From: Kiritimatiellia bacterium
GTDB taxonomy: Bacteria > Verrucomicrobiota > Kiritimatiellia > RFP12 > UBA1067
Direction of reading: 5' to 3'
Assembly: GCA_050949565.1 (NCBI GenBank)
Contig: JBMNFY010000017.1
Coordinates: forward strand, 1,248,001-1,312,000
Length of the DNA: 64,000 nt
Shown here: piece after piece, positions 3 through 56,630 of the stretch
Position numbering within the stretch: the first letter of the stretch is position 1
How the letters are laid out: the number at the start of each line of letters is the position of its first letter
Position numbers and translations under genes: made by a program
Notes under the pieces: generated by a model
The model's input: only the letters and a program-made list of their open reading frames with translations
Database searches by the model: none
What the model was told of the DNA's origin: nothing

Positions 3-2257
3 ACGCACAGCTACACCGACAATAGTGGCTCGATCACCGGCACGCACAGTGTCTGCTTCAGCCCGCCGTTCGGCTGGGCGGCCATGCAGACCGCCTACGA
101 CCCTTGGGCCGTCTCCCAGCCGGGGGACAATGAAGTCGCCGACCTTATGTACCGCCTAGGTGTCGCCGCCGAGGCCGATTATGAGAACGGCGGCACCAGC
201 GCAAGTATTCTGACGCTGGGCAACCGCCTTAATACGTATCTCTTTTACGAGCCTATAGGCTACGCGGGGTCGCAGGCCGAGTTGCTGCCGGGCCTTAACG
301 AGAGCCTGCGCGTAGGCTACCCGTGCGTCATCGCGGTCCCCGGCCACGCGATTGTGGCGGATGGATTGTTGGACGATAGCGGGACTATGTCGTACCACAT
401 CAACTACGGCTGGGGCGGTTCAAACGACGGCTGGTGGTCCGCCGATAATGTGAACGGCAAGGCGATTAGCTACGGCTGCACCTCGCTCAAACCCATACTG
501 ATGGCGTTCCCGGCCGCAGCGACAGTGCAGGCGGTAGCCGGCGAGCCCATGACCCTCGAGTGGTGGTTGCCATCCCGCCGTGAACAAGAGGCTGAGCACA
601 TTCGGCTCCGTCGGCTGACGCCGCATAGCGCAGTCTGGAACTCTGCCGCCGAAACGCTGGACCATACCGTGTCAAGCGGCTGGCAGATCAAACCCGAAGG
701 CCGCTCCGGCGCGTGCTGGTTCGCTGGGCCGCTCGGCTACAAAGTATTGACGCTCACCGACTTTTTTGTCCCCGATGCTTCGTCGGCACTCACCTTCTGG
801 ATGCAATGTCGGCTGTCCAGTGCGCCTTTCCGGGTCGCGGTTTCTAGCGACGGCGGGAACACCTACACAACCCTGTTCGAAAAGAACGACAATTATACGT
901 TGAGTTGGCAGTCCTACACGGTTCCGCTTGGCGCGTATGCCGGCGAGCAACTCCGGATCAGGTTTGAATTGATCCGGGGATCGTACTATCAGAGCGGCGG
1001 CGTCTGGCTCGACGACCTTAGCGTCACCTCCGGCACTTGGTGGCGCTGGCTGCCGTTCATCGAGGATACGACGCTCGCCTCGCGCCGGTATTCCGAACAG
1101 CGGACGCTGCTTGATAACTGTGCCGACTTCTCGATCTTTGAAGTAACGTCCTCATCGACCTACAAAGACTGGGCCGTCAGTACCACCGGTGGCGTGGATC
1201 AGTGCTTCTACAAGCAGCCGGGCGGTTATTCGAACCGCGAATATCATCTGACTGCAAAAGCACCGATCACTCCCGGTACTGGTACGCGGCTGTTGATGCG
1301 CTGGAAGCGTAACCTCGCGGGTGACGGTTTCCGCGTACTGGTCTCGCCTAACCGCTCGACCTTCACAGAGATCTGGAACGCGGGCGGCGCTTCGGATTGG
1401 ACAGAGCAAGCCATCCCGCTCGGTGCCTACGCCGGGCAACCGATCTACCTGCGGCTGGAATATACGACCGGCAGTTATTATTCCAGCGGCGGAGTCTGGA
1501 TCGACACCCTCTGGCTGCAAGATGTCACGAACCCGGAACTGGAGGGCCAGCCCGTACACCTCACGGTTACGACAGCCCCTCTGGAGGTCGGCAGCTACAC
1601 GCTGGCGTCGGTCGTGGAGGACACCAACGCGATATCCCACACGCTTTCGCCGCCATTCACTCTGAACGTCTCGCCGCGTTTCAATCACCGGCTCGAATCC
1701 GGCGGAAGCGTCACGTTGACCAGTTACAACGGTAGCTCCGAGCGGCTGGATATCCCGTCGGAGTGGGCAGGCCAACCGGTCGCGGGCATCGCTGCGAACG
1801 CCTTTGCCGGTACGCCGGTTGTTTCTGTGACTCTGCCTGCATCGATCGCGACGCTCGAAACCGGCGCTTTCGCCGACGCCAGCGCTTTGCAACGACTCTT
1901 TTTCGCGGGCAACGCGCCATCCGCCGCCCCCAACGCGCTGGCGGGCTCGGCGGCGACCGTCTACTATCTGCCGGGAAGGTCAAACTGGTCCGCCAGCTTT
2001 GGTGGCCGGCCGGCCTTGCTGTGGAATCCCGCGCCGGTTCCCGGCGCCGGATTCGGTTTTCAGGGCGGGATTTTTGGCTTCACGCTGACCGGCACGGCGC
2101 ACTGATCCCGGTGCATGTGCAGGCAACCACCAATCTTACATCCGCCGTCTGGTCTTCAGTCACCAACGCCGAGCTTAACGCCGCCGGCACGCTGCAAGTC
2201 CGCGATCCGGAGTCTCCGGCGCATGCGGGACGCTTCTACCGCGTTGTCTGGCCGTGA
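3..2257 (+). CDS. Secreted peptidase C10 (SpeB/streptopain-like) with two jelly-roll repeat domains, BspA-type LRR and C-terminal 'RFYRV' domain; 5' partial, frameshift near 2095-2102
   Basis: Frame open from window edge; GHAIVADG and YHINYGWGG motifs of C10; two repeats ending PLGAYAG..(I/L)R.E...SGGVW(L/I)D; LRR VTLPASIATLETGAF; a natural-looking tail LIPVHVQATTNL...GRFYRVVWP lies in another frame ending 2257. Confidence 0.75.
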
Positions 2258-2358: not shown

Positions 2359-3513
2359 TCACTGACCGGCTACCGCGCTGACGATCGCATCGGCGGCGCG
2401 CGTTGAGGCGTCGCCGGTGCCCAGCAGGGCGTTTGTCTCGTCGAGCGCGGCCAGGGTCTGCGCGCGTGCGTCGGCGTCTGTCAGATAGCGCTGGAGCTGG
2501 TCGGCGAGGCGCTGCGGTGTGAAAGCGTCTTGGATGAGTTCCGGCATGACCTCGCGGCCGGCGATGATGTTGGCGAGCCCCAGATGTTTCACGCCCTTGA
2601 TCAGCCAGCGCCCGATCCAGTAAGTCACGCGGCTGGCGATGTAGACCAGCACGGCGGGGCAGCGCATCAGGCAGGCTTCCAGCGTGGCGGTGCCTGAAGT
2701 GACCGCCGCAGCGTGCGCCTGAAGCATCACGTGGCGTGCCTGGCCATCGACAAAGGTGAGGCGCGCGGGCCGGGTGCGGGCGCGGGCGGCGACCGCCTCG
2801 CCGAGTTCGCGCATGGCCGGGGTGGGGGCGGGAATGATGAACGAGCAATCGCCCTCCAAACGTTCTTCAAGCAGGGTGGCGGCGGCCAGCAGGCGCGGCA
2901 GGATGCGCGTGATCTCACTGGCGCGACTGCCCGGCAGCAGCGCGATGCGGTGCGTGCCGTTCCACGGGAGCGCGACGGGCGGCGCGGCGCGTGTTTCGGC
3001 GGCGCGATCGACCAGTGGATGCCCCGTGAAGCGTGCGTCGAGCGATGTCTGCTTGAAGAGCGCGGGCTCAAAGGGCAGGATGCAGAGCAGCAGATCGAGT
3101 ATGCGCGCGAGTTTCGGGATGCGCCCGCGACGCCAGGCCCAGACCTGCGGACAGATGTAGTGAACCGTTTTGATACTGCGGTCGTGCGCGAAGCGGGCGA
3201 GGCGCAGGTTCATACCGGGATAGTCTACCGTGAGCACGATGTCGGGCTGCCAGACGCGGATCTCGCGCTTCATGTGTCTGATCATGCCCAACAGGAACGG
3301 CAGGTTGCGCAGCACGGGGGTGATGCCAATGAGCGCAATACGGTCGGTGTGATAAAACAACTCGGCTCCCTCGGCGCGCATAGCATCGCCGCCGAAGCCG
3401 CGGAAGACGATGGGACGGTCCACGGCAGCCCGCAGAGCGCGCATCAGGGCGGCGGCGTGCATGTCACCGCTCACCTCACCGGCGCAAATCATGATTTTCA
3501 GAGGGGTGTTCAT
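2359..3513 (-). CDS. lpxB: Lipid-A-disaccharide synthase
   Basis: AGEVSGDMHAA, DYPGMN, YICPQVWAWRRGR, LLPGSR, SGTATLE motifs. Confidence 0.97.
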   Translation of the reverse strand: MNTPLKIMICAGEVSGDMHAAALMRALRAAVDRPIVFRGFGGDAMRAEGAELFYHTDRIALIGITPVLRNLPFLLGMIRHMKREIRVWQPDIVLTVDYPGMNLRLARFAHDRSIKTVHYICPQVWAWRRGRIPKLARILDLLLCILPFEPALFKQTSLDARFTGHPLVDRAAETRAAPPVALPWNGTHRIALLPGSRASEITRILPRLLAAATLLEERLEGDCSFIIPAPTPAMRELGEAVAARARTRPARLTFVDGQARHVMLQAHAAAVTSGTATLEACLMRCPAVLVYIASRVTYWIGRWLIKGVKHLGLANIIAGREVMPELIQDAFTPQRLADQLQRYLTDADARAQTLAALDETNALLGTGDASTRAADAIVSAVAGQ

Positions 3514-4361
3514 ACGGGTCTGAGCGGTGCAGGCGGCAGGCCGGAATCAAGGCCGATGATCGCGATGTTCATGCGGTCGGCGGCGGCGATCACAGCCGGG
3601 CGGTCAAGCAAAACCAAGCGTCCGGCCTGATAGGCGAGCGCCGAGACACCGGCGCGGCGCAACACGGGGATGGTCTTCGCGCCGATCACGGGAATGTCAA
3701 AACGCATGTCGTGGCCATTCTTGGCGACCTTGACCACCACGGCACCGCGTCCGCCCAACTTGCCGCCGCGGCGGATTGCACGGTCGGTGCCCTCGAATGC
3801 CTCGACGGCCAGCACCATGCCGTCCTTCACGAGCAGCGTCTGGCCGATGTCCAGGCCGCAGATGTCGCACGCGACCCGGTGCCCGAAGGCGATGTCACTC
3901 GCCTCGCGTTCGTCCGGCGCGCGGCGGGTAAGCACGCCCACGCCGGGAATGTGCTCATCCATGTAACAGGAAGCCGGCAGCATGCGGATGCCGACACGTT
4001 CCACCTCGATTGCGATGCGTCCAAAAATCGTATGCGCGTTTTTGACGGGCAATTCCTTGAGCCAGGTGCGCGCCAGCGTATCGAAACGCGTACGAAAGAG
4101 CGCGATCGGGGTGATGCCGCCGGCCATAATGCCGTGGGAGAAGTCCATGCTCGTGACCCATTCGAAGATACGCTGGATCTCGCCTACGCCGAACCAGACG
4201 CAGGTGTCCGCCAGTGCGGCGGTGGCGCGGGCGGTCGAGCCGCGTAGCGCCAGCATGGTGATGCGTTGGACACCGGCTTTGCGCGCGCCGACGGCAATAC
4301 AAGCGGGGTAGGTGCCGTCACCCGCGACGATCAAAAGATGACGGATGGGTTCAGGAGTCAT
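3510..4361 (-). CDS. lpxI: UDP-2,3-diacylglucosamine diphosphatase LpxI
   Basis: DIGQT, AVEAFEGTD, DMRFDIPVIG motifs; next to lpxB; start set at MTPEPIRH. Confidence 0.92.
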   Translation of the reverse strand: MTPEPIRHLLIVAGDGTYPACIAVGARKAGVQRITMLALRGSTARATAALADTCVWFGVGEIQRIFEWVTSMDFSHGIMAGGITPIALFRTRFDTLARTWLKELPVKNAHTIFGRIAIEVERVGIRMLPASCYMDEHIPGVGVLTRRAPDEREASDIAFGHRVACDICGLDIGQTLLVKDGMVLAVEAFEGTDRAIRRGGKLGGRGAVVVKVAKNGHDMRFDIPVIGAKTIPVLRRAGVSALAYQAGRLVLLDRPAVIAAADRMNIAIIGLDSGLPPAPLRPV

Positions 4362-4443
4362 GTGTTCGGAGTATACCGGATGAGGAAAGGATGAGGGAAG
4401 GGAGAAGTTTGGGTGTAACGCGGTAACGTCGGTCGCCAACTTT

Positions 4444-4472
4444 TTGCTAACACTTCAGCGGACGGTTATGAT
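4444..4472 (+). promoter_or_regulatory. Putative sigma70 promoter of the VTC-CotH operon
   Basis: TTGCTA-17 nt-TATGAT upstream of 4543. Confidence 0.45.
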
Positions 4473-4542
4473 ACGCTGTACGGTTGTAACCTAGAGTTGG
4501 GGAGCGTGTGTGTTCAGAAAGGGCAGACAGTCTAGTCGGGAT

Positions 4543-5331
4543 ATGGTGACGCGGTATGAGGCGAAGTACATCATTCCGCGTTCACGTGTTCCTGAAATAC
4601 GGGCGTTTATCCGCCCGTTCTGTCGGCCTGATCCCTGCGCCCACGGCAACCCGCCGGAGTACACAATCACCACGTTGCAGTTGGACGATTCCCGTTATTC
4701 GCTTCACAACGCTAAGGAATTCGGGGCGCTGAATCGTTTCAAGCTGCGGGCGCGGACCTACGGCACGATCGGTTCGACGCCGGTCTTCGCGGAGGTCAAG
4801 TCGAAGTTGGAAGACACGATCATCAAATCCCGTGCGGCGATTCCCTTTAAGGCATGGAACAGGGAACTGGTGTTCGGGGTGCATCTGCCCAATTTTTTCC
4901 ATAGCGAGCGGCAGGAGATCGATTTTTTGCAGTTCAGGCGTTTGGCTTGGGAGATCGGTGCCGAACCCAAGGTGCTGGTGCGTTATATCCGTGAATCTTA
5001 CGTGGGGGCGATCGACAGCTACGTGCGGGTAACGTTCGATCGTAACCTGCAATACCAGATAACTGACTCCTGGACCGACTTTGGGCGCAGTGGTTTCTGG
5101 CGCGGCATGGATTCGACCGAGGCGCAGGGATTCGGACTGCCCTACTCAGGCGTGGTGATGGAAGTGAAAACGCTCTCCCAAACACCGGCCTGGGTGATGG
5201 ACTTGGTGGAACGATTCGAGTTGAGTAAGCGAGGAAACTGCAAGTATTCGACCGCCATCTGGCGCGAGGGGGTCTTTACGAAACACCCCGGAACAAATTC
5301 TGAAACTGAAGAAGCGTTGGTGAGCCTGTAA
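4543..5331 (+). CDS. VTC-domain (TTM/CYTH fold) polyphosphate polymerase-like protein
   Basis: RYEAKY, RFKLRARTY, FAEVKSK, YIRESY, RVTFDRNL, VVMEVK, KYST motifs. Confidence 0.9.
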   Translation: MVTRYEAKYIIPRSRVPEIRAFIRPFCRPDPCAHGNPPEYTITTLQLDDSRYSLHNAKEFGALNRFKLRARTYGTIGSTPVFAEVKSKLEDTIIKSRAAIPFKAWNRELVFGVHLPNFFHSERQEIDFLQFRRLAWEIGAEPKVLVRYIRESYVGAIDSYVRVTFDRNLQYQITDSWTDFGRSGFWRGMDSTEAQGFGLPYSGVVMEVKTLSQTPAWVMDLVERFELSKRGNCKYSTAIWREGVFTKHPGTNSETEEALVSL

Positions 5332-5347
5332 AGGAGCAGTGTAAACC

Positions 5348-6043
5348 GTGAACGTGCATGACTATCTGGCCCTGTTTTTCGGGACGCAAGAGCCGCTAAA
5401 CCCGGCTCTTGTGGCGGGGGCGATGGTGCTGAGTTTCCTGCTGGCCATCCTCATCGCGACCGTGTACCAGGTCACCTTCCGCGGCTTCACCTACTCGCGC
5501 TCCTACATCCACACCATGGTGCTGGGCAGCATGGTGACCTGCATGTTGATCATGGCGGTTGGCAATAACATCGCGCGCGGCATGGGCATTCTGGGTACAT
5601 TGGCGATTATCCGTTTCCGCACGCCGGTACGCGACCCACGCGACGCCATGTTCCTCTTCGCTTGCCTCGGCGTCGGCATTGCCTGCGGTGCCGGCACGCC
5701 GGTGGTCGCGGTGATCGGTACCGGTTTGATCTGCGCTGCAGCACTGCTGTTGCACTGGATACCGTTCGCCTCGCGCCGCGACTACGAAGGCCTGTTGCGT
5801 TTCATCATGCCCGTCGATGACGCAGAGACCGCGCAAACTGCGCAGGAGATTCTCAAACGCTACTGCTCCTCGTTTTATCTGCTCGGCATGCGCGATGCGG
5901 AGCAGGGCGATGCCATGGAGTTTTCGTACCAGGTGCGGTTGCTGGATCCGGCCTATCAGCAAGATCTCGTCGCCGCCTTCAAAAAAGCGGGTGGCTTTTC
6001 GGACCCCGTGCTGCTGTTGCAGCGTACGACGGTAGAACTGTAA
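5348..6043 (+). CDS. DUF4956 family inner-membrane protein
   Basis: Several TM segments; GNNIARGMGILGTLAIIRFRTPVRDPRD signature; soluble C-terminal domain; usual neighbour of VTC genes. Confidence 0.9.
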   Translation: MNVHDYLALFFGTQEPLNPALVAGAMVLSFLLAILIATVYQVTFRGFTYSRSYIHTMVLGSMVTCMLIMAVGNNIARGMGILGTLAIIRFRTPVRDPRDAMFLFACLGVGIACGAGTPVVAVIGTGLICAAALLLHWIPFASRRDYEGLLRFIMPVDDAETAQTAQEILKRYCSSFYLLGMRDAEQGDAMEFSYQVRLLDPAYQQDLVAAFKKAGGFSDPVLLLQRTTVEL

Positions 6044-6058
6044 GGACAGTGAATCAAG

Positions 6059-7264
6059 ATGAAGACCTCATATAGACGACCCATGCGGCTGCCCTTCAGG
6101 CTGATTCTGAAACGCCTGATGCGGGTCTGCTTCATATTGCTCGTGATAGGTCTGATTCCCTTTTTCCTCTGGTTCCAGACGCAAGATCCTAAAGCGTACC
6201 GTTTCAACGGCGTGGTCGAGAGTGAGGCCGAAACCGTGGGTCCTGTCGAGACCGCGCGCATTCTGTCGATCGAGGTCCAGTCCGGACAGTCCGTGAAGGC
6301 CGGCGACGTGCTGGTGCGCCTAGACCCCGCCGACCGCGCGATGGACTTGGCCATGAACGAGGCGCGCCTTAAGAACTACGAGCAGGATCTGTTACGCTAT
6401 GAGCAGGACATCGTCCGGCAGCGGCAGGACTTGCAGGACTCCGAGCGCCGTTGCCGTCAAGCCGTACGCGAAGCGGAGACCGCCATTGAGACCGAACGAA
6501 TGAACCGCACCCGTGACGCGGCCGAACTGGCTGGTCTGCAAGCCGAGATCAAACGCCTGCAGCCCTTGATCGACCGGCGGCTGGTCAGCGAAACCGAGCT
6601 GTCGCGCCTGCGCCCCGCTGCAGAGGCTCTCGCCACCACGGTCGCCGAATACACGCCCCTGCTCGCCACCTTGGAAAAACAGCACGCGCGCGCGATTGAG
6701 GACCTGAACGAGGTCAAGGCGCTGCTGGCCGAAACAGCAACGAAAGGCACCGATGCCGATCCGATCCTTACCACCATACGCCAGGCTGTGGAGACCTGCC
6801 GCAAGGCCGCCACCAACGACCCCTCTGTGCTGCGTGCCTCGCGTTCCGGCGTGGTGTCGTGCGTCCTACGCCAGCCCGGCGACGTGGTGACGGGCGGCGA
6901 GCCCGTGGTGCGCGTGGCCGCATCAAGCGCGCTCTATATCACCGGAATGCTGACACAGCACCAACTCCAAGACCTGAAGGTCGGTGACATCCTGCACGTC
7001 GCACGCGCGGCAGCCGGTCAGCGTGAGACGCTCAAAGCACAGGTCGAGGTCATCGCACCTGAGGTGATGGACCTGCTGGACCCTTTCAATCCAGTACCGC
7101 GCTTTCCGCTACGCGGCCGGCGTGTACGTATGCGCGTTCTGGACGAGAACAACGGCCTGATTCCCGGTGAGACTGTGACTTTGGAGTCGGGGCATCGCGA
7201 GACCTGGCTGGAGGGGGTCAAGCGCATCTGTTTTTTTTCTGGAACTCCGCCAGCAACGCCATAA
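6059..7264 (+). CDS. HlyD-family membrane fusion (periplasmic adaptor) protein
   Basis: N-terminal TM; two lipoyl half-motifs (ILSIEVQSGQSVKAGDVLVRLD; SGVVSCVLRQPGDVV) around a long coiled coil. Confidence 0.85.
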   Translation: MKTSYRRPMRLPFRLILKRLMRVCFILLVIGLIPFFLWFQTQDPKAYRFNGVVESEAETVGPVETARILSIEVQSGQSVKAGDVLVRLDPADRAMDLAMNEARLKNYEQDLLRYEQDIVRQRQDLQDSERRCRQAVREAETAIETERMNRTRDAAELAGLQAEIKRLQPLIDRRLVSETELSRLRPAAEALATTVAEYTPLLATLEKQHARAIEDLNEVKALLAETATKGTDADPILTTIRQAVETCRKAATNDPSVLRASRSGVVSCVLRQPGDVVTGGEPVVRVAASSALYITGMLTQHQLQDLKVGDILHVARAAAGQRETLKAQVEVIAPEVMDLLDPFNPVPRFPLRGRRVRMRVLDENNGLIPGETVTLESGHRETWLEGVKRICFFSGTPPATP

Positions 7265-7360
7265 ACGTGCGCTGAGCGGGCATTAGGTTGAACAAGGCAT
7301 GCGGCCATGCCGCGAGGGATCAAAAGGAACAACTTTCAACGTTCAAGTTGTAGGCACATC

Positions 7361-8849
7361 ATGGTGATAAGGCGAGTATGGCACACCGCAAAACGTTGCG
7401 TAGCCGGAACGATCGTTCTGGCTGTTGCTGGTTGCTCTACAGTCGAAGACCAGACGCTCGCCATGTCCAAGCCCGTAACCCAAACAGATACGGCATCCTC
7501 TGTTCCGGCGACACCACCAGCCGAGCCGCCAGCCGAAGGCTACGACTGGAATACTCTAGCCCGCATGGCGGCGGCTAACTGCAGCGAAGCCCGCGCCCTG
7601 CTGTTAGATGCGCAGGCGGAACGCAACAAGACGGCGGTGGACACCGGCTGGCGTAACCCCCGGCTCCGTCTGGGACACGGCTGGATCGACCAAGACAACG
7701 ACACGCCGGGACGATCCGGCATGCGGACCTACCCCGACGAGGCGGGCTCGCCGCAACGACCGTTTAGGAGCTACCGTGAATGGGATGACCGCTCGTTCAC
7801 GGAGCGATCCGTGGGGCTGCGCGTCTACACGGCCAACCCCTTTGTGAACCGTTGGCTGCGCAAGCGCGGCGAGGCCGCAGCGCGCGCGATCGAGAAAGAG
7901 TCAGAGGAGGAGGCCTACGCGATCTTCTGCGAAGTCAAGACGCTCTGTCTGGAGGCGGAGCTACTACGCGAGGAGAGTCGGTCTGTTAGAACGGATGGCC
8001 GAGATCCGCACAAAACTGCGCGACCTGCGCCGCGAACAGTCTGAAGCGGGTGTGACCAGTCCGCTCGACCTGGTCCACGCCGAGACGAAGTTAGCGTCAC
8101 AACGCTCTGAGCTTTTCGGCAAGCGGATGGCGCGGCAACAACTCGTGCGGCGCATTGCCGTGCTCGCCGGCGTACCGGCCGAAGGGCTCCGCCTGCGACC
8201 GCGCACAACGGACTGGGTGCCGGTGCCCGCGCATCTAGACGCCGCCGCGCTCACTGATCTCGCCTTCATGCGGCGTCCCGACCTCGCACGATTGGAGCAG
8301 GAGAAAGAGGCCGCAACGTACGCGCTACGTGCCGCGCGCGCCGGACAGATTCCCTGGTTTGAGTATGTCGAGGGCTCGGTTGAAGATACACACGGCGACA
8401 GCTATTCGCGCGAAGAACTCTTCACCGGACGCGACCACACAACGCGTGACGAGACCGAGTGGCAGGTACGGGTCGCCATGACCCTGCCGGTCTTCAACTG
8501 GCTGGGCGACGAGATCCGCCTGACACGCACGCAACTGGCCGCCGCTGAAACGCGCGTGCGCGGACAGTACGACTTGGTCCGATCGGAAGTCAGCGGTGTC
8601 TTGGAGGACTACCGGGCGGCGCAGGCCGAGTGGGCACGCCTGGACAGCGAAGGCGATCGGTTGCGCACCGAGATGTATGCCCGCGTCGAGAGCCTAGCCA
8701 AAGAACCGACCATCAAACGTGAAGAGGTGCTCGCCGTGCACGAGGAGTTGCTGGCCTTTCAGCGTGTCTGCCTCAAGGCCGAACGCGAATGTCTGTTTAT
8801 CGAGCAGTGCTTGGAGACCGTAAGCGGCGGAGCGCTGCCGACAGAATAG
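7361..8849 (+). CDS. TolC-like outer-membrane efflux lipoprotein, split by a +1 frameshift near 7976
   Basis: Lipobox LAVAGC; AGVTSPLDLVHAE, RRPDLARLE, MTLPVFNW motifs; removing one A at ~7976 joins EE to VGLLERMAE. Confidence 0.75.
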
Positions 8850-8859
8850 GAGGAACACC

Positions 8860-11800
8860 ATGAACATACCGACCACAAACACCGGCCGTCACAACCGCCT
8901 TCTGAGCTTGACCGTTTTCGCACTCGCAATGTGCATGAGCGCCCGTGGCGCACTCGTCGTTAACGAGGTCTGCTACGACAACTCGATGGTACCCGACGAT
9001 ACCGGCGATACCTCCTCGGACTGGATCGAGTTGTACAACACAGGCCCGGCAGCGGTGAACATCCTGAACTACGGACTGGGCGATGCCAACCCGTATGACG
9101 ATAACAAAGGGGTGCGGCTGCCCAACTACACCATTCCGCCCGGCGGATTCCTCGTGGTCTTTGCCAGCTCGGATCTGCCCGAATACACAGTCTGGACCAA
9201 CGCGCCGGACATCATCGCGATACCCGCCAACTCCGCTTGGCGCTACAACACACCGGCCAGCGCACCGCCCTCAACCTGGAAAGACAGCACTTTCGATGAC
9301 ACCGCATGGGCAAGCGGGATCACGCCGTTGGGCTATAACGACGCAACCCTCAACATGGATTGCGCGACGATCCTGCCATACGGTTCCAACCCCGCAAACC
9401 GCTACCCGACCGCTTACTTCCGCAAGACCTTCAAGATCGTGAACCCGTCCGTCGTGACCGGCCTCGTCGTCCGCGCACGCATCAACGACGGCATGGTCCT
9501 CTATCTCAACGGAGTGGAGCAGAAGCGCATCTACATGCCGGACGGTGCGATCGCTTACTCAACGCTTGCCACGGTGAGTGTACCGCCGACATTCTGGACC
9601 AACATCCTGCTTTCAGCCTCTGGCCTTGTGGCCGGCGATAACGTGCTGGCCGTTGAGACGCACCAAGCCGCAACAGACAGCGTCGACTTGATCATGGACA
9701 TGACCGTCACCGCGCTCGTCGAGGAACAGATGCCGATCGTTCACGGCCAGTTCGGGCTCAAAAAGACCGGCGAGAACGTCCACCTCTTCGATGCCGGATT
9801 GACACGCATCCACAAGTTCGACTCGCCATCCTCAGAGCCTGGCGAGAACAAGACCTACGGACTCGCAGTTGATGGCGTGACCGGCGTTTGTAAAATCTAC
9901 GACCGCCCGACTCCCGGCTTGCCCAACGCAACGTACGCGCAGAAATACTCGGTCGCGCTTTACTCCGAAACGCCGACTTTTTCGGTCGCGCCCGGTTTTT
10001 ATGCCGCCAACCAGTCCGTCGTGCTAAGCACGCCCACGGCCGGCCACAAAATTTACTACACGCTGGACGGCAGTGACCCTTGGGACAGCACCACGTATGT
10101 GTTCAGCGGTGCGGCCATCTCAATCACCGCCGAGGCACCGGCCACCTCCGGCCTCGCGTGGCTGCGCACGAATCCGATTGAGATCGACAGCAGGGTGCCC
10201 GGCACCGCTTGGTTGCCACCGATCGGTAGCATTCCCAAGGCAGTGGTGCTTCGTGCGATCGCCGTCGATAGTATGACCGGCACCACCTGTTCGCCTGAGA
10301 CGCGCGGCACCTACTTCATCGGCCCCTCCTTCACGACCCGCACCCTGCCCACAGTATCGCTCATTACCGACTCCAACAATTTGTTCGGTTTTACCTCGGG
10401 CATCTATGTGCCAGGCAAGTACTACGCCGATTCGCCGACAGGCTACGGCTCAAACAAGTGGGGCAAGCCCAACGCGAATTACCATCAAGACAACGACGAT
10501 GAGGCTTGGGAACGCCCGGTGCAGGTCGAGCTTTTCGAGACCGCACAGAACACCGCCGCCTTTGCCTGCACAGTCGGCATGGCCATGCACGGCGGCGGCA
10601 CGCGCGCCCTCCCGCAAAAGACGCTCTATCTCATCTCCCGCCTCGGCACATACGGCACAAGCCATATCGACTATCAGCTCTTCCCTGACGAGAGCGGCAC
10701 AAGTTACAAGCGCTTCCTGCTACGCAACAGCGGCAACGACTGGTACGGCCCGATGTCCGGCGGCATCGCCACGATGCTCAAAGACGCGGTTTTCCATCGC
10801 ATCGTCAAAAAACTGGACACCTCGGTCATGGCCTATCGCCCCGTCACCGCCTACATCAACGGCGAGTACTGGGGCATCCATAATCTGCGCGAAAGCTTTG
10901 ACAAGCACTACCTCGCCACGCGCTACGGGCTGGACCCCGACAACATGGACATCCTGATGCACGAAGAAGACGCGAAAGACAAGGTCAGAATCACACGCGT
11001 CGACGGCGATAAAAACAGTGACGAAGAGTATGAGGAGTTGATCGACTGGATCGATGTAAACCCGCTCTCCGAGAACATCAATTACGAGCGCGTGCAGACA
11101 GCCGCCGTGTTCACCAACGCACTCGACATTGTGATCACCGGCATCGATGTCACCAACCACGCCGACTACATCATCGCAGAGACGTTCTTCGCCAACACCG
11201 ACTGGCCGATCAACAACTGCGACTTCTGGCGGGCACACACCAACCAGACCGCCACTTGTGGCGCGTTCGGCGACACCCGCTGGCGCTGGATGCTCTACGA
11301 CCTCGACGTCGCCGGCGAAAAGGGCGCGGACTTCAACATGTTCACTTACCTCTCTTCCAAAAAAATGACCGGCCGTCGCGAACCCGGATTTCTGATCAAC
11401 CAGCTTTGGTCGAACTTGAGTTTCCGCAACTACTTCGTGATGCGCTACGCCAATCTGCTCAACACCACCTTCCGCCCCGAGCGCATGACCGCGATCATCG
11501 CCGATGCCACCGACACAATCGCCCCCGAGATCGAGCAACACTTCCGACGCTGGGGCCGCACCTTCACGCAGGCGCAGTGGCGCGCCGCCGTGACCAACGT
11601 GCTGATCGACTTCACCGCCACGCGCCATGCGGTCTCTTGGCAACATCTCGACAGCCACTTCGGCCTAGGTGGGACCGGCACCCTCACGGTGAACAACCAC
11701 GACGCCACGGGTACCGGCGGACGCTTCATCGTCAACGGGATCGACATCACGACCGGCACCGAAGGCGTCACCACGCGCGCCTCTTGGAGCGGCACCTTCT

Positions 11801-12411
11801 TCCGCAACCTGCCGGTCACCGTCGAGGCCGTACCCGACGACGGCTACGCTTTTGACGGCTGGGTCGGCACCGCCGTAGTGAATCCCGCCCCCAGCCTCTT
11901 CGTCGGCGATGCGCCGATCATCCTGACCGCGCGCTTCCGCCCGCTCGACGCACCGGCCTACCAGCCGACCGGCTACGAGCAGTGGCAACTCGCCAACTAC
12001 ATGGAGCAACAGATTCTGGGCACCGGCGAGGCCGCCGCAGACGCGCCGTCAGGTTACGCCGGCATGAGCAACCTTGCGTTGTACGCCTTCGGCATGAGCC
12101 GCTTCGACGGCTTGACCGACGAACAGCGAATCGCCCGCGCCCGCCTCTCCATCCACGCTCAGGACAGTGCGCTCTGGTTGGGTTACACCCGCCTCAACGA
12201 TAGCTTCAGCGATGTGCGCTACACCCTCAAGGTCGCCTCTTCGCTCACCGCGCCTGTGACTTGGAACGACGCCGTCACCGGCCTCGATCTCGACCCCGTG
12301 GCGCTGACCAACATTCTGGATGCCTCGATCTGGTTCTACGAAGTGCGCCTGCCGCAGGCCACGCCAGAGCGGGCCCAGCGTTTCTTCAAGCTGGAGGCAG
12401 AGTTACAGTAA
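8860..12411 (+). CDS. Secreted CotH-family kinase with lamin-tail and Fn3-like/chitobiase domains
   Basis: Signal peptide; VVNEV..DWIELYN (LTD); IYYTLDGSDP; LLRNSGNDW, INGEYWGIHNLRE, DWPINN, RWRWMLYDLD; ends QRFFKLEAELQ. Confidence 0.9.
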   Translation: MNIPTTNTGRHNRLLSLTVFALAMCMSARGALVVNEVCYDNSMVPDDTGDTSSDWIELYNTGPAAVNILNYGLGDANPYDDNKGVRLPNYTIPPGGFLVVFASSDLPEYTVWTNAPDIIAIPANSAWRYNTPASAPPSTWKDSTFDDTAWASGITPLGYNDATLNMDCATILPYGSNPANRYPTAYFRKTFKIVNPSVVTGLVVRARINDGMVLYLNGVEQKRIYMPDGAIAYSTLATVSVPPTFWTNILLSASGLVAGDNVLAVETHQAATDSVDLIMDMTVTALVEEQMPIVHGQFGLKKTGENVHLFDAGLTRIHKFDSPSSEPGENKTYGLAVDGVTGVCKIYDRPTPGLPNATYAQKYSVALYSETPTFSVAPGFYAANQSVVLSTPTAGHKIYYTLDGSDPWDSTTYVFSGAAISITAEAPATSGLAWLRTNPIEIDSRVPGTAWLPPIGSIPKAVVLRAIAVDSMTGTTCSPETRGTYFIGPSFTTRTLPTVSLITDSNNLFGFTSGIYVPGKYYADSPTGYGSNKWGKPNANYHQDNDDEAWERPVQVELFETAQNTAAFACTVGMAMHGGGTRALPQKTLYLISRLGTYGTSHIDYQLFPDESGTSYKRFLLRNSGNDWYGPMSGGIATMLKDAVFHRIVKKLDTSVMAYRPVTAYINGEYWGIHNLRESFDKHYLATRYGLDPDNMDILMHEEDAKDKVRITRVDGDKNSDEEYEELIDWIDVNPLSENINYERVQTAAVFTNALDIVITGIDVTNHADYIIAETFFANTDWPINNCDFWRAHTNQTATCGAFGDTRWRWMLYDLDVAGEKGADFNMFTYLSSKKMTGRREPGFLINQLWSNLSFRNYFVMRYANLLNTTFRPERMTAIIADATDTIAPEIEQHFRRWGRTFTQAQWRAAVTNVLIDFTATRHAVSWQHLDSHFGLGGTGTLTVNNHDATGTGGRFIVNGIDITTGTEGVTTRASWSGTFFRNLPVTVEAVPDDGYAFDGWVGTAVVNPAPSLFVGDAPIILTARFRPLDAPAYQPTGYEQWQLANYMEQQILGTGEAAADAPSGYAGMSNLALYAFGMSRFDGLTDEQRIARARLSIHAQDSALWLGYTRLNDSFSDVRYTLKVASSLTAPVTWNDAVTGLDLDPVALTNILDASIWFYEVRLPQATPERAQRFFKLEAELQ

Positions 12412-12421
12412 TGCCCACGGT

Positions 12422-15033
12422 TTATGGGGCGGCTATAAGGTCTATCCAGAAAGAGCGTTTGATGCGCAGGAGCCTGAATTCCGGATTGTTTTCCGACAGC
12501 AGGTAATGGCCCATCCCCTCCGGAAATTTAGCAAAATCCGGATGACGCACCTGAGTCACCACGCCCGCGAACGAGGCGCGCATTGACCTGTGCACCAGCC
12601 TCCTGCCGTTGTCGTAATCGTAATACTGGTTGAACCTGCCTTTGTAGATGCCGGTCATAGGCGAATAGCTCAACGTTGCAAGTGCGCTGTTAGCGCCTAT
12701 GTAGACGTAAGCGTCGCCATCCTTCACCGGCCTGATCCCCTTCTCGATCACAAGGCGTGTTCCCGTCGACATCACCGACACCGCGTACGGCAGCGCCTCA
12801 TATTGCGGCAGCACCGCGCTGCCGGACACATAGTAGGCGACATCGTTAGTTTGCGCACACAGCCAGTATTCGGTGGCCGGTAGCACCGCGCCTTTGCCGA
12901 AGTATCCGCCGCACGGCATAAGCAACGCCTCAAAACCGTCCGGTCCGCTGCCGGGCTTGTCCCAGCGCACGAACCAATCTTCTGACCAGTCCGTATCCAC
13001 AACACCCGTGTTCGGAGCGATCCAAAGCATAGCGCCAATTCCCCCTGCTCGTCTGTACAACGGCTGGAAGAACGGCACGCTTGCCATGCTGCCGTAATCA
13101 CCGAACAGCAGCAGCGTTGATGCCTGCGACACTCTGGTACCGTCCGCCAGCACGCCGGCGATCCTGACGCTTCCCCGAAGTCCTACGGTCATCGTCAAAT
13201 ACCCGCTGCCCTGCGGCTCTTCTTGCGCGGCCCCGTACGACAGTACATCATAAGGGTACAGTGAAACCGTGTAATACCCCCTCAGCCGCGCTAGATCGGC
13301 CTGAGCGTAATTGTCCTCACGATCAGCGAACACATGGTAGGCAGCCTCAATGAGTACTTCTTCGTTCCCCAGCGAACCACCCGACAGACGGCCGTACGCC
13401 ATAATCCAGTTGACCCAAAGCTCAAGAGTCTCGCCGCTCGACCTCTGCATACGGACATAGTAATCGTTGTCTTCCGTCACGCCCTGCCAACCCGTCGCCC
13501 TAAAGCTCAGCGAGCGTCCCTGCAGTACAACCTTCGCCGTGATCCGTCCGCGCTTGGTTATGTTCATTGAGAAGGTGCCACACACATCCGGCAAGGGCTC
13601 TCCGCCCCCAAACCTTTTGTCACGAAAAACCACGCCGGGGTAGGTGCCGAAAGGTCCGATGAGTTCAGGTTGTTGCGGCGTTCCGTTACCGGTGAGCCAG
13701 CCCTTAATCGCTTTATACGTGACATCGAAACGCCCGAAAGCGTCGATGCCTCCGCCCGTCTCACACGATGAACTCCCACCCACAAGCTGCCCGATCAGCT
13801 TCCCTGTCGCATCGAAGAGCGGTGCGCCACTACTGCCCGGCTCCGTCACGCCGTCCGTAAAATTCACGAACCAAAAATCTGGATCAATCGCGTCCAGCTT
13901 GCTGAAACTGATTCGTTTGTAAGCGCCGTCTGGGTGATGGATACAGGTGAGCGTTTCGGTATACGACGGCCTGCTCGTCGACCACCCGACATAGGTGGCG
14001 CCATCCGGTGACGGCGAGCGCAAACGCAGCAACGCAAAGTCATTGCCCGTCTCGTAGGTCTGTCCCGCGAGATAATCGGCGCCACCCTCCGTGACGGTCA
14101 CGGCGGCCAGCGATGGAGGCGCACCGTTGCAAGTCGCCGTCTGGAAAAACCAGTAGAACTCGGTATCGCTGGCCTGGCTCTGGTTGGCGACGCAGTGCGT
14201 CCCTGTCAAAAAGAAATCAACCCATGTGCTATCATCCAGATCGTTCGCAGGCACCCCGTGCAATAGAGATAGTTCGCTTCATAAAAGACCCCAATGCCTG
14301 CAACCCCCCGAGAAGCAGCGTCCCACCCCGGGTAGCAACTCACGTCATTGTGGCAATTTCCCTCCTTGAGCCTTATCGTGCCGGGCGTCCGATAGAGATG
14401 GACCACCTTCCCAATCGAAAACGCGGCGCGCGTAGGGTCGCTTCCCCGTGGCACCCAACACTCTACTGTTACCGTTTGCGCAAAAAGCGCCCCGGACCAA
14501 AACGCCTCGCGATTTCTCATGCTGACGCTGTTATACGGTCCCCGCACAACTGTCGGGTCCTCGGTGTCGAACACCCTGATCTCGCAGCCTTCCGGCAACT
14601 CAACATCCTCGAAATGGACGCGTATCCCATGCGCACCATCGGCACGGAGGGTCGTACACCACACACGCGAACCATCCGCCAGCACCGACCATCCGCCGAG
14701 CGACGCCGGAGCCGCTGATCCTCGCGCCGTGATGCGGTTCGGTAGCTGGCGCACCACACCGATCCGCAATGCTTTTTCGCCCGCCGCAACGGCTTCGGCA
14801 TCCTCCGCCGCAAGTGTCTGCAAGTCCAGTGCTTCAAGCACTATTTGGGGCTCGCACTCCCACTGTCCGGCGGCAAAAGAGTGCGGGAGCGATGGCAAGG
14901 CCTTTGGCACCATCGCCATCGGCCGCACAGCCGACGGTACGGAGATTCCGGATTCGCCCGCTCCGCTACTCAGAACCACCGACAGTGTCACAAGCCCCAC
15001 AACCCCGTTTCCTATCCACCACCGCATTTTCAT
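12422..15033 (-). CDS. Secreted lysyl-endopeptidase-like trypsin serine protease with PVC-type C-terminal domain; frameshift near 14246
   Basis: Signal peptide and pro-region in one frame (to YCTGCL); FLTGTHCV, DFALLRL, IHHPDG, TEPGSSGAPLFD in the next; one added base gives CTGCLLND. Confidence 0.8.
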
Positions 15034-16230: not shown

Positions 16231-19200
16231 CTACAGATCGCGCAACGCATCGGGATCGAAGCGCCGTGCGGCGGCGCGCGCCGCGCACCAGACGCAACCG
16301 ACGGCACAAAGCACCAGCACAAGAATCGCGACCGCCATCGTCCGCCATGGCAACGCGCCGCCCAGTGAACGCGCCGCCGGTTGGATCGCCACCAAGGCCG
16401 ACAGGATGCCGGACACCAGTCCCGCCATCACCAGCACCCCGTATTCTGCGGCCAGCAGACGCACTACACTCCGCCGCGCCACACCGACCGCCGCCAGCAG
16501 GGCAAATTCACTGCGGCGCTCCTCCACACCGCGCAGGATCACCAGCGACAATCCGGCCGTACCCAGCAGCAGCCCGAGCGCACCCAGCACCAGAAACAGA
16601 TCCAGATAACTCGCCTCCATCGCACCCAACATGCGCAACCGCTCCTCCACGGTTTCGATCGTCACTCCCGGCACCGGGTGGCGCAACACGGCGGCTTGCG
16701 CGCGCTGTTCGGCAGTCGGACGCCGGGTCACGTCCGTCGCTTCGCGCAAAGCGTAAGGCGCATAGTCGCAGAGCCACATCCGATAACCTTCTTCAGGGGA
16801 CATCTGCGCAAAGAATTGTTCGTCGATAATCAGCGCGCCCTGCAGGATGCCGCTGCGCACCGGCAATGCGCCCACGATCCGCACACGCCACGGCGTGCCG
16901 TCGCTCCCGGCGTAGGTGATGACCGCGCCATCGGTGACTCCCGCCCGAGTCTTGAGACTGTATTGCAGCATCGCCCGGTCGGCCGCCAGTGCCGGGATCG
17001 TGCCATCCGGTAGCGGTTGTTCGAGCGGCGACCAGACGCCGCCCGCCTCGCGCGGTTCGAATGCCCGCGCTCGCGCCATGACGCGCGCCTCGAGGCCCAA
17101 CAACTGCGGCGTTTGCGGTGCGTTCATGTTGAGGCATCCGGCCTCGTCGCCCTCCCGCATACGCACTGGAACAATGCCTTCCGCACCGCTTATTGCATGC
17201 GCCAGTTCTAGGCCGCGTGTGCGATCCAGCGACACTGCCGAGGTGACGATCGCACGGAAACCGCCGCTACCAGACCACGGATGCTCGCTGCCGGCTGCAG
17301 GATCATGCCGCATCGCGAAAATCCCGACCGACAAAAAGAGCCCCACTGCCAACAAAATCACCACCGGCGCACTGCGGCGCGGTATCGCCAGTGCCCGCGC
17401 CACGCCCGCCGCCACCGGCGACTGCACCGCCGACCGTCCGGCAGCGACGCGCCGCCATGCCTCGCCCATCGAGACCAAGAACAGCATGATTGACACCATC
17501 AGCAGGAACCCGGCACCGAAGAACGCCCCGTTCGCAGCCGCCCCCTCCGGACCCCACACCACGATCGCGATCACCGCCAGCGCCAACACACCGCCGACGA
17601 CGCTCTTAGCAGACGCCGACAAACGGTTGTTGCGCGTTTTTTTAACGCAGAGACGCGGAGACGCAGAGGTTTTGCAAAACCCCTCGTGGCATGGGCGTCC
17701 CGCCCATGAAACACGGGCAAGATGCCCGTGCCACACCTGCTCCCGACTCTCTGCCCCCCCTTTCACCAGAAACGCATTGTCTTCGCACCGCCACACCGCC
17801 GTGGGCAGACTCGACGCATAGCGCCGTGTGACGTGCAGCAGCACCAACAGGGTCAAGCCAGCACTGATTGCGGCAGCCAGCAACGCCGCCGGCATGGAGA
17901 AGATGAAGAGCGGTTCAGCACCGGCGAAGGCATCGCGCCAGAAACGGCCCAGACTCCACACAAGTGCGCGGGCGAGCAACGCCCCGCCCGCAGCCCCCAC
18001 CACGGTGCCCACGCAAAGCGGTACGCTCCACTCCGCCACCAAGACCAGTATCACACGATTGCGACGCCACCCCAGCGCACGAAAGAGCGCGATCTCATCC
18101 TTACGCGTTTCGAGCGCCAACGCCAGCGAGAGCCCGACCAGCAACAACGACGCGGCCATCACGATAAAAGCCATGCCGACAAAGAGCAGCCGAAAATCGG
18201 TGGTGCCGCGTGCGGCGGCGAGCCCCTCTTCCCAGATGGGACGCACCTGAAATCCGAGTCGCGTCGGCGGGACGCCTTTGAGAGCCGTGCGCACCGCCGC
18301 TTCGTCCGCCGCCACACTCAAGCACATGGCGTCGCCGAAGACCGTACCGAACGCCGTCTTACCGGTCGCGTGCGTGAAAAAGAGTTTCGGCGTTTCGCGC
18401 CACGCCTTCCAATAGGCCTCGTTCGCGGCATCGTTCAGTTGCTCCTCATCCAACGGCAGGCCGACATCCCAATCCGCACAACTGTCCACGTTCTCAAGTC
18501 CCGGAAACACGGGCATCGCGCGGCGCGCTGTCGTGGCTGTCTCCATCGGGATCACGCCACGCACGCGGAAGGTATCTTGCGTCTCGACCAGCCGACCGCC
18601 CGCTTCAAAACGACGCCAACTCACCGTCACCTCCGCATCGGTGGTGACGCCCAGCGTCTCGGCCAGCCACGCATTGATCACGATCTCGTCGTCGCGCAAA
18701 TCGCGCGGAACGAGCGCACCATCCGGCGTGACCGCCGCCACAAAGCCATACGGCGTGCCGCGTTCCCCCGCCGTGAACGCATCCGCCAAATGATAGGTCG
18801 CGGCACCGACCTTCAGTCCCGCCTGCTCCAACGCCTCACGCAGACCGGGCGGCAGAAACACACGGCGGCTCCTGATCACTGTGACTGTCTCTCCCGCCTC
18901 GGATTTCTGTTCTTCGATCTCCAACCCGCACGCTTCGGGCGTCAGCGTTTGTGCTAATGCACGTTCCAATTCCTGCGGCGACAGAGCGGAGAGCAGCAGG
19001 TTGGCCATCTTCGGCTCACCTACACTTGCCGCCAACGTATCCAGCGGAACGAAGAGATTCACAGGCGGTAACGACGCGGGGCGCAACGCAAAATCGGCGG
19101 GAAGCAGCGTGGTGTTCAGCGGGAGCGGAACGGATGACGGAGCAGACGCCAGATGGCGGCGGACAAGGCGCGACTCCTTCACCTGACCGAGCGGGAGTTC

Positions 19201-19638
19201 CGCCGCATGGAGCGTCGGCTTCACAAAACGCACCGCGCCTTCGGCTCCGCGCAACAGGTCGCGCGCCCGGTCGTTCAGCGTGGCTCGGAACTCTGCGCCT
19301 CCCGTTTCCTGATCACTGTACAGACCGATGATCTGCGCATCAGACGCACACACCGCGCCTTTTGCCGTCAACAACTCACCCCGCAACAGCAACGCGGCTT
19401 CTGTGTTGGGTAGGCGTTGCGCGAGGTCTGCCGGAAAGACCCCTTCGGCAAGCAGTACAGCAGAACGTGCGGCACCGAGACGGGCGTGCAGACGAGCGCG
19501 CAGACCGGCCTGCAACGATTCACCAGTCAGCAACGCGGCACCCAGTACCGCGGCGGTCAGCGCGGCCGTAGCCGCAAAGACGCCGTGCCGGGCGCGATAG
19601 TACCGCAGGCTGCGTTTGACCCAAGTTCCGGTTGTCAT
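16231..19638 (-). CDS. FtsX/MacB-like ABC transporter permease (double unit) with in-frame repeat insertion
   Basis: Two FtsX halves (ETRKDEIALFRALGW; EERRSEFALLAAVGV); repeat-derived peptide in the linker. Confidence 0.85.
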   Translation of the reverse strand: MTTGTWVKRSLRYYRARHGVFAATAALTAAVLGAALLTGESLQAGLRARLHARLGAARSAVLLAEGVFPADLAQRLPNTEAALLLRGELLTAKGAVCASDAQIIGLYSDQETGGAEFRATLNDRARDLLRGAEGAVRFVKPTLHAAELPLGQVKESRLVRRHLASAPSSVPLPLNTTLLPADFALRPASLPPVNLFVPLDTLAASVGEPKMANLLLSALSPQELERALAQTLTPEACGLEIEEQKSEAGETVTVIRSRRVFLPPGLREALEQAGLKVGAATYHLADAFTAGERGTPYGFVAAVTPDGALVPRDLRDDEIVINAWLAETLGVTTDAEVTVSWRRFEAGGRLVETQDTFRVRGVIPMETATTARRAMPVFPGLENVDSCADWDVGLPLDEEQLNDAANEAYWKAWRETPKLFFTHATGKTAFGTVFGDAMCLSVAADEAAVRTALKGVPPTRLGFQVRPIWEEGLAAARGTTDFRLLFVGMAFIVMAASLLLVGLSLALALETRKDEIALFRALGWRRNRVILVLVAEWSVPLCVGTVVGAAGGALLARALVWSLGRFWRDAFAGAEPLFIFSMPAALLAAAISAGLTLLVLLHVTRRYASSLPTAVWRCEDNAFLVKGGAESREQVWHGHLARVSWAGRPCHEGFCKTSASPRLCVKKTRNNRLSASAKSVVGGVLALAVIAIVVWGPEGAAANGAFFGAGFLLMVSIMLFLVSMGEAWRRVAAGRSAVQSPVAAGVARALAIPRRSAPVVILLAVGLFLSVGIFAMRHDPAAGSEHPWSGSGGFRAIVTSAVSLDRTRGLELAHAISGAEGIVPVRMREGDEAGCLNMNAPQTPQLLGLEARVMARARAFEPREAGGVWSPLEQPLPDGTIPALAADRAMLQYSLKTRAGVTDGAVITYAGSDGTPWRVRIVGALPVRSGILQGALIIDEQFFAQMSPEEGYRMWLCDYAPYALREATDVTRRPTAEQRAQAAVLRHPVPGVTIETVEERLRMLGAMEASYLDLFLVLGALGLLLGTAGLSLVILRGVEERRSEFALLAAVGVARRSVVRLLAAEYGVLVMAGLVSGILSALVAIQPAARSLGGALPWRTMAVAILVLVLCAVGCVWCAARAAARRFDPDALRDL
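17644..17788. repeat. Composite REP/IS-end-derived element inside the permease gene
   Basis: 17666-17740 is nearly the reverse complement of the IS right end 58204-58280; 17740-17788 matches 19949-19997. Confidence 0.8.
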
Positions 19639-35146: not shown

Positions 35147-35209
35147 GCCACCGCGCCCGTGCGCAACGGACCGCGCGCGGCGCACCCCGTCTGCCGACGC
35201 CTCCTTACA

Positions 35210-36127: not shown

Positions 36128-36143
36128 AACCTTACACCGCATC

Positions 36144-49298: not shown

Positions 49299-49314
49299 GT
49301 CCGTGTCCCCTTCG

Positions 49315-56534: not shown

Positions 56535-56630
56535 GTTAACCTCTCCCTTTTTCTCGTGTGCACACCCAACCACGCCGGACAACACTACCCAAAATTGACC
56601 GCCACCAAAAGACGCAAACGTAATTGCCCT

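Follow-up and report, generated by a model that had tools for sequence, protein, structure and literature searches.

A conserved VTC-DUF4956-HlyD-TolC gene module in Kiritimatiellia, a candidate polymerase-coupled polyphosphate exporter

The stretch of DNA analysed here is a 64,000-nucleotide (nt) window from a Kiritimatiellia bacterium, and coordinates are given as positions within this window. It contains five open reading frames (ORFs) in a row on the + strand, which encode a VTC-domain protein, a DUF4956 membrane protein, a HlyD-type adaptor, a TolC-type channel and an exported CotH kinase, separated by gaps of 16, 15, 42 and 10 nt. The ORFs and their Pfam matches bear out the five co-oriented, closely spaced genes reported in a preliminary description of this DNA. 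The most economical reading of the gene linkage and the sequences is that VTC and DUF4956 would form an inner-membrane unit bridged to the outside by HlyD and TolC, since HlyD and TolC are conserved beside them, no conventional transporter is linked to them, and the catalytic residues of yeast Vtc4 are kept. The first four proteins would then make up a polymerase-coupled, envelope-spanning polyphosphate exporter, to which we assign a probability of roughly one half.

In the proposed mechanism, the soluble, Vtc4-like tunnel enzyme would polymerise phosphate from ATP at the cytoplasmic face of the inner membrane. The growing chain would pass into DUF4956, which carries an Arg-Phe-Arg motif and further arginines at its predicted cytoplasmic membrane face, and would leave by way of the EmrA-like adaptor, which is anchored in the membrane, and then a TolC-like lipoprotein channel in the outer membrane, to the surface or the medium. 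As has been proposed for the yeast VTC complex, export would be driven by polymerisation itself, and not by a pump of the ATP-binding cassette (ABC), resistance-nodulation-division (RND) or major facilitator superfamily (MFS) type. In the window's family, the exported CotH kinase may be an extracytoplasmic client or partner of the module. The literature searched gave no description of the VTC-DUF4956-HlyD-TolC layout, in agreement with the preliminary description, which knew of no characterised system of this kind; the module is thus an undescribed combination of a VTC-type polymerase with a TolC-type duct.

Conservation of the gene module

A VTC match was found in 21 of 61 relatives, and 20 loci were examined. 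All 14 loci from the window's family have the order VTC, DUF4956, HlyD, with TolC next in 13; in the remaining locus the contig ends inside HlyD. Other families of the order contributed six loci. These are VTC-DUF4956-CotH triads in which CotH carries a Laminin_G_3 domain and neither adaptor nor channel is present. As a separate observation, the triads L046-L051 and L091 combine these features with an N-terminally shorter VTC, and in L077 and L079 VTC lies beside CotH proteins with a right-handed beta-helix, also without adaptor or channel.

A census of the class covered 301 genomes, each at least 80% complete. VTC is present in 126 of these, and a close homologue of the window adaptor (E <= 1e-12) in 68. 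The linkage count rested on the 150 listed of 158 VTC matches. On this basis, 61 of the 75 adaptor matches lie less than 3 kb downstream of a same-strand VTC match, in 60 genomes, and none of the N-terminally short VTC matches (i.e., the triad type, n = 34) is adaptor-linked. Several of the 14 adaptor matches outside this linkage lie at contig starts. Forty class loci, 25 linked and 15 called unlinked, were sampled and scanned with profiles made from window-family proteins. The adaptor is present in 35 of them, including 10 of the 15 "unlinked" loci, where a diverged HlyD lies beside DUF4956, and TolC is also present in 26 of the 35.

A scan of named loci, with one genome per species and a VTC alignment, confirmed 336 loci, of which the closest 80 were analysed; some of their contigs are shared with the other samples. 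These 80 loci are labelled as metagenome-assembled genomes (MAGs) of the Planctomycetes-Verrucomicrobia-Chlamydiae (PVC) group, namely Kiritimatiellia, Lentisphaerae/Victivallales, Limisphaerales, subdivision 3 and Spartobacteria, with a few odd bin labels (Treponema, Bifidobacteriaceae). All four core genes are present in 66 of the 80, and the remainder includes seven loci cut by contig ends, one without TolC, and one in which adaptor and channel form a single ORF. The latter (L104:3581-6259, +) follows VTC and DUF4956 and encodes 892 aa, with the whole adaptor at aa 4-391 and a whole TolC-like part at aa 410-891; it is either a natural adaptor-channel fusion or the product of a stop codon lost in the MAG. 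The order is permuted to HlyD-TolC-VTC-DUF4956 in three of the 80 (L164, L166 and L170), and in L166 a giant CotH protein is encoded upstream of the permuted four-gene core. Matches in a protein atlas include Planctomycetota and Myxococcota clusters, which serve as a lead only.

The association is kept through deep divergence, down to about 25% identity for VTC and about 17% for the adaptor, and the genes on either side differ between loci, including loci of the same genus. Two changes are enough to account for adaptor linkage on a VTC tree of 61 rows; 0 of 500 shuffles needed so few. A distinct branch of this tree, with good support, holds the triad-type VTCs, and the HlyD-linked VTCs lie apart from the triads of the window's own order. 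The recurrence of the arrangement in dozens of genomes puts it far beyond chance.

The preliminary description had noted the lack of an ABC ATPase or RND pump among the five genes, and a Pfam scan of these genes agrees, finding no ABC, RND or MFS domains. No RND or MFS genes were found in the flanks of the related loci scanned, and ABC genes lie near only a few loci: L036, L089 (at a distance of two to three genes) and, in the form of importer parts, L059. The preliminary description had also placed HlyD and TolC with VTC-DUF4956 as the bridge across the envelope. Across the class and other PVC lineages, HlyD and mostly TolC are indeed conserved beside VTC-DUF4956, and the flanks scanned hold no conserved separate transporter of the ABC, RND or MFS type.

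Two observations concern possible pump genes near the module. In L036 (2953-4838, -), VTC is immediately preceded by co-oriented genes for an ABC ATPase and another HlyD-type adaptor; this arrangement is absent in the window and in two other same-genus loci. In the window itself, a 1135-aa protein with a C-terminal FtsX-like permease domain is encoded at 16231-19638 (-), with no ABC ATPase domain in the neighbouring ORFs scanned. This permease was considered as a hidden pump partner and dropped because the flanks are not conserved among relatives.

The VTC-domain protein

The first gene (4510-5331, +) encodes a soluble protein of 273 aa, in which no hydrophobic segment was found. Its sole Pfam match is the VTC domain (PF09359; 93.8 bits against a cut-off of 23, E = 1.5e-26, profile positions 2-230 of 235), which makes it a Vtc4-like triphosphate tunnel enzyme and a candidate polyphosphate polymerase. 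Translation more likely begins at the GTG at 4510 than at the ATG at 4543, since relatives conserve the 11 residues encoded ahead of the latter.

A profile built from 29 homologues was compared with solved structures. The best match is the catalytic domain of yeast Vtc4 (3g3q, 4e-22), the non-catalytic Vtc2 and Vtc3 are matched more weakly (about 1e-12), and no other tunnel enzyme among the solved structures is matched at E <= 0.01. Residues K19, R80, R82, E95, K97, E218, K220 and K245 of the window protein are invariant in the 29 VTC sequences, and align to Vtc4 residues K200, R264, R266, E279, K281, E426, K428 and K458, respectively. The 2009 Vtc4 structure paper reportedly ascribes importance to K200, K281 and K458. 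Judged by this alignment, the window VTC retains the residues that yeast Vtc4 requires for catalysis. A yeast complex with the triple substitution R264A/R266A/E426N is described as catalytically impaired (PMC9911596).

The module might instead be a new tripartite pump for something other than polyphosphate (a small molecule, a cation complex or another polymer), in which VTC would hydrolyse ATP or triphosphate to energise DUF4956. The gene linkage and the missing conventional pump fit such a pump equally well, and the tunnel enzymes of the VTC superfamily include triphosphatases and cyclases. However, the profile matches only Vtc4, Vtc2 and Vtc3 at the threshold given above, with the polymerase subunit best; the Vtc4 catalytic residues are invariant, including the equivalent of K458; and no substrate-specific enzyme genes are conserved beside the module. 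These observations make a pump for another substrate rather unlikely, and favour polyphosphate as the putative product of the exporter proposed here.

The eukaryotic VTC complex (Vtc4/Vtc3 or Vtc2/Vtc1; 3g3q, 7ytj, 8i6v) has a homologous catalytic tunnel domain, and the equivalents of its K200, R264, R266, K281, E426 and K458 are conserved in the window VTC. In contrast to the eukaryotic protein, the bacterial one has neither an SPX domain nor a fused C-terminal membrane domain, and its membrane partner, DUF4956, belongs to a different Pfam family from those named in the yeast complex. The bacterial module also adds an adaptor and an outer-membrane channel, and would deliver to the exterior of a cell with two membranes, where the yeast complex delivers to a vacuole. 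The idea that polymerisation can be coupled to passage across a membrane originates with the yeast VTC complex (PMC9911596).

A search for longer, fused VTC forms found none, which is weak evidence. In one locus (L089:13571-17401, -), a frame of 1276 aa ends in a VTC domain (aa 1021-1255), while its initial 1000 residues match nothing in Pfam. Either the proteins are fused here or the ORF has been called too long.

Bacteria make polyphosphate via PPK1 and PPK2, and there are reports of the polymer outside cells or on their surface; to our knowledge, no bacterial polyphosphate exporter has been identified. The genome that holds the window (4.66 Mb in 21 contigs, 92% complete) carries one VTC gene and six CotH genes. 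PPK1 and Ppx/GppA genes lie side by side at C17:1574722-1577181, about 320 kb from the cluster, and PPK2 was not found in this 92%-complete genome. Given the presence of PPK1 and Ppx/GppA, the VTC module is an additional system beyond ordinary polyphosphate metabolism.

The DUF4956 membrane protein

The second gene (5348-6043, +) encodes a protein of 231 aa with several hydrophobic segments, which matches DUF4956 (PF16316) at 46.6 bits against a cut-off of 30.6 (E = 4.2e-12) and is a candidate inner-membrane conduit or anchor. Its AlphaFold2 model, with a mean predicted local distance difference test (pLDDT) score of 82, shows five helices at 19-43, 51-71, 75-89, 97-114 and 118-137, followed by a C-terminal beta-alpha-beta-beta-alpha-beta domain at 147-224. 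Residues R89-F90-R91 are invariant across the DUF4956 alignment, and the positive-inside rule would place them, together with the arginines that follow, at the cytoplasmic face of the membrane. Searches with Foldseek and VIA-align matched the C-terminal domain alone and gave no solved-structure match for the transmembrane part, a comparison that barely tests this part and carries no claim of a new fold. The predicted complex of VTC with DUF4956, made from two alignments, scored 0.26 against a mark of 0.32, which is evidence neither for nor against the binding that the mechanism would entail.

Structure comparison shows a similarity of the C-terminal domain to those of ACT, NikR and MgtC (Z 8-11), and the domain aligns to the MgtC C-terminal domains 7qa5 (Z 9.0) and 2lqj (Z 8.3). 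DUF4956 and the MgtC family (PF02308) have a common layout of several membrane helices and a C-terminal ACT-like domain, yet the match to the family is below threshold (23.5 against 31.4 bits, 7.5e-5, in Pfam; 20.2 against 255 bits for MgtC in NCBIfam). MgtC acts by binding other proteins, and we are not aware of any report that it conducts a polymer.

The resemblance to MgtC counts towards another interpretation, in which two adjacent systems share co-regulation only: VTC and DUF4956 would make or sense polyphosphate in an MgtC-like manner, and the adaptor and channel would serve an ABC, MFS or RND transporter encoded elsewhere. VTC-DUF4956 does occur without HlyD and TolC, in the triads and in five of the 80 named loci; the same-genus locus L036 carries genes for an ABC ATPase and another HlyD immediately before the module; and TolC of E. 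coli is encoded apart from its pumps. Nevertheless, adaptors are normally encoded with their transporter, and this adaptor subfamily adjoins DUF4956 in 61 of 75 cases. The four genes also stay together despite the permuted order, and no transporter is conserved in the flanks scanned. Two systems that are merely neighbours are thus quite unlikely, and the four genes are better read as one polymerase-coupled exporter, whose proteins would bind one another and move the chain outwards.

The adaptor and the outer-membrane channel

The third gene (6059-7264, +) encodes a HlyD/EmrA-type membrane fusion protein of 401 aa, with Pfam matches to HlyD_3 (47.8 bits against 22.2) and HlyD_D23 (35.6 against 30). 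The protein consists of a short basic N-terminus, one transmembrane helix (hydrophobic segment at 11-42), a lipoyl domain, a long helical hairpin and a beta-barrel, and the best match of its profile among solved structures is EmrA (4tko, 7e-28). It scores under every NCBIfam subfamily cut-off, including those for EmrA/EmrK (72.1 against 390.8 bits), type I HlyD (67.5 against 208.65) and RND adaptors (57.7 against 94.9).

The fourth gene (7307-8849, +) encodes a TolC-type outer-membrane factor, and is called as two ORFs, 7307-8044 and 7995-8849. Each half has one match to the Pfam OEP family, at 37.8 bits (above the cut-off of 22) and at 17.3 bits (below it), and the protein is far under the NCBIfam cut-offs for the NodT and TolC families. 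The N-terminus has a lipoprotein-type LAVAGC motif, in which AGC is the consensus among 26 orthologues. An intact same-genus orthologue of 513 aa was modelled with a pLDDT of 87.7, and the model matches E. coli TolC (1ek9) at 1.2e-18, with a template modelling (TM) score of 0.66 by target length.

The common features with EmrAB-TolC, HlyBD-TolC and MacAB-TolC are an adaptor with N-terminal helix, lipoyl, hairpin and beta-barrel parts, and the TolC fold. Unlike these systems, the module encodes no MFS, ABC or RND transporter, and by a wide margin its adaptor misses the curated cut-offs of the EmrA/EmrK, type I HlyD and RND adaptor families, as its channel does those of the NodT and TolC families.

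The TolC reading frame is not intact in this assembly: a single additional base at about 7975-7977 (+) puts the two overlapping ORFs into different frames. If the gene were a true pseudogene, the module would be dead in this strain. Yet in an alignment, two same-genus TolC genes are without the base present in the window, and the protein read through with an X at the break has 513 aa, is 95.3% identical to the intact orthologue and contains no further stop. Near-identical DNA was found in public runs from anaerobic digesters, bioreactors and landfill, and the contigs of four out of four other runs (two DNA, two RNA-library) are one base shorter at this site, at full depth. Given this absence in all four runs, the frameshift either arose in assembly or is confined to one strain, and both are more likely than a pseudogene. 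The TolC gene of the population is intact, and a dead module is very unlikely.

The CotH kinase

The fifth gene (8860-12411, +) encodes an exported, multidomain protein of 1183 aa with a CotH kinase domain (PF08757; 144.8 bits, E = 5.7e-42), along with LTD, CHB_HEX_C, Fn3_assoc and Flg_new_2 domains and a hydrophobic, signal-peptide-like segment at 14-34. Single-sequence searches of solved structures with VTC, DUF4956 and the CotH domain gave nothing useful, whereas profiles gave matches for VTC and for CotH, the latter to B. cereus CotH (5jd9, 2.3e-13). Residues D781 and D814 of the window protein align to B. cereus aspartates at chain positions 224 and 247. With an offset of 4, we infer these positions to correspond to D228 and D251 of B. 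subtilis CotH, the substitution of which inactivates the kinase.

Giant CotH/LTD proteins adjoin the module in 10 of the 14 window-family loci (eight downstream and co-oriented, one upstream and one convergent) and in 14 of the 40 sampled class loci, so that CotH is a fifth gene mainly in the window's family. Of the polyphosphate machine proposed in the preliminary description, the part made up of VTC, DUF4956, HlyD and TolC gains support from gene linkage and from the Vtc4 residues, whereas the part assigned to CotH is weaker.

The proximity of these giant proteins could also mean that the module secretes or anchors them, as a type I-like system with VTC-DUF4956 in place of the ABC exporter. 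The N-terminal signal-peptide-like segment of CotH, however, indicates Sec export, most class loci are without an adjacent CotH gene, and it is hard to see what a phosphate-tunnel enzyme would do in the export of proteins. A secretion system for CotH is accordingly highly improbable, and polyphosphate export is retained as the preferred function of the module.

The preliminary description had stated that bacterial VTC, DUF4956 and CotH genes often lie together, and this is already in print (10.1101/768473, PMC12345266). Genes for CotH, a polyphosphate polymerase and DUF4956 are described as accessory genes at Gram-positive pel operons and are also present in NELoc-2 of C. perfringens (10.1101/768473, 10.1101/2024.04.20.589940, PMC12345266, PMC2879425), and mutants of the CotH and DUF4956 genes of S. 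intermedius are reported to produce less Pel and to aggregate less (PMC12345266). The same three families are clustered there as in the window; the hosts of those triads, in contrast, are single-membraned, and the triads are without adaptor or channel.

A bolder extension is that secretion across the envelope is driven by the polymerase and that surface CotH kinases use polyphosphate, instead of ATP, as phosphoryl donor. It fits the recurrent association of VTC, DUF4956 and CotH in three layouts. That exported polyphosphate feeds CotH is nonetheless speculation, and the extension as a whole is quite improbable.

Points against an exporter and possible implications

Several observations weigh against the proposed exporter. 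The TolC gene is frameshifted in this assembly, TolC is missing beside nine of the 35 HlyD-linked class loci (one of which is cut by a contig end), and HlyD and TolC are both absent from an 8 kb flank at five of the 80 named loci, all of which have VTC and four of which also have DUF4956. The triads within the same order are also without HlyD and TolC, although these bacteria are diderm too. Since HlyD linkage needs two changes on the VTC tree, it represents one old association that was retained, and not repeated recruitment. As the membrane part of DUF4956 matched no solved structure, the pore stays a candidate only; this protein is distantly MgtC-like (23.5 bits in Pfam, under the cut-off; Z of about 9 for the C-terminal domain), and MgtC is known as a regulator, not as a channel. 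Finally, biochemical or genetic data on bacterial VTC-domain proteins were not found in the literature searched.

If the proposal is true, the eukaryotic VTC polymerase-translocase would have its first counterpart in bacteria, and TolC-dependent envelope machines would gain a further class, in which the synthesis of a polymer takes the place of an ABC, RND or MFS pump as the driving force. The module would also provide a handle on the recurrent link of VTC and DUF4956 with exported CotH, which is found beside Gram-positive pel biofilm operons as well. Were the bolder extension to CotH true as a whole, it would explain both how secreted kinases work without ATP and how bacteria release polyphosphate. 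Anaerobic digesters, sediments and guts harbour Kiritimatiellia and other PVC bacteria in which the module is common, so that it may be relevant to phosphorus cycling.

Expression signals and surrounding genes

Upstream of the cluster, lpxI (3510-4439) is divergent from it, and lpxB also lies upstream on the opposite strand. The 70-nt gap between lpxI and VTC contains a single sigma-70-like match, TTGCTA-17-TATGAT (4444-4472, +), so that the one putative promoter of the preliminary description does exist as a sequence match. It is a weak lead, however, and no better than chance: a promoter and terminator scan of the cluster found nothing above chance level, with 2 sigma-70-like sites observed against 2.2 expected from shuffles. 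Contigs from two RNA libraries span most of the cluster, which is a weak hint of expression, since such contigs are silent on strand, start and level; one of them, of 5.2 kb, extends past 4300, upstream of the cluster.

Downstream, a trypsin-like gene (12422-14263) is convergent with the cluster. Farther away, two giant ORFs of 1825 and 1901 aa (44379-49856 and 51099-56804, both -) are without a Pfam match at E <= 1e-5. Probably, a secreted protease is encoded at 84-2105 (+): this 673-aa protein matches Peptidase_C10, MAM and BspA-type leucine-rich repeats. At 34121-39038 (+), genes for a MoxR-type AAA ATPase, a DUF58 protein and a BatA/VWA/PA14 protein lie in a row, forming a Bat-like, aerotolerance-type cluster.

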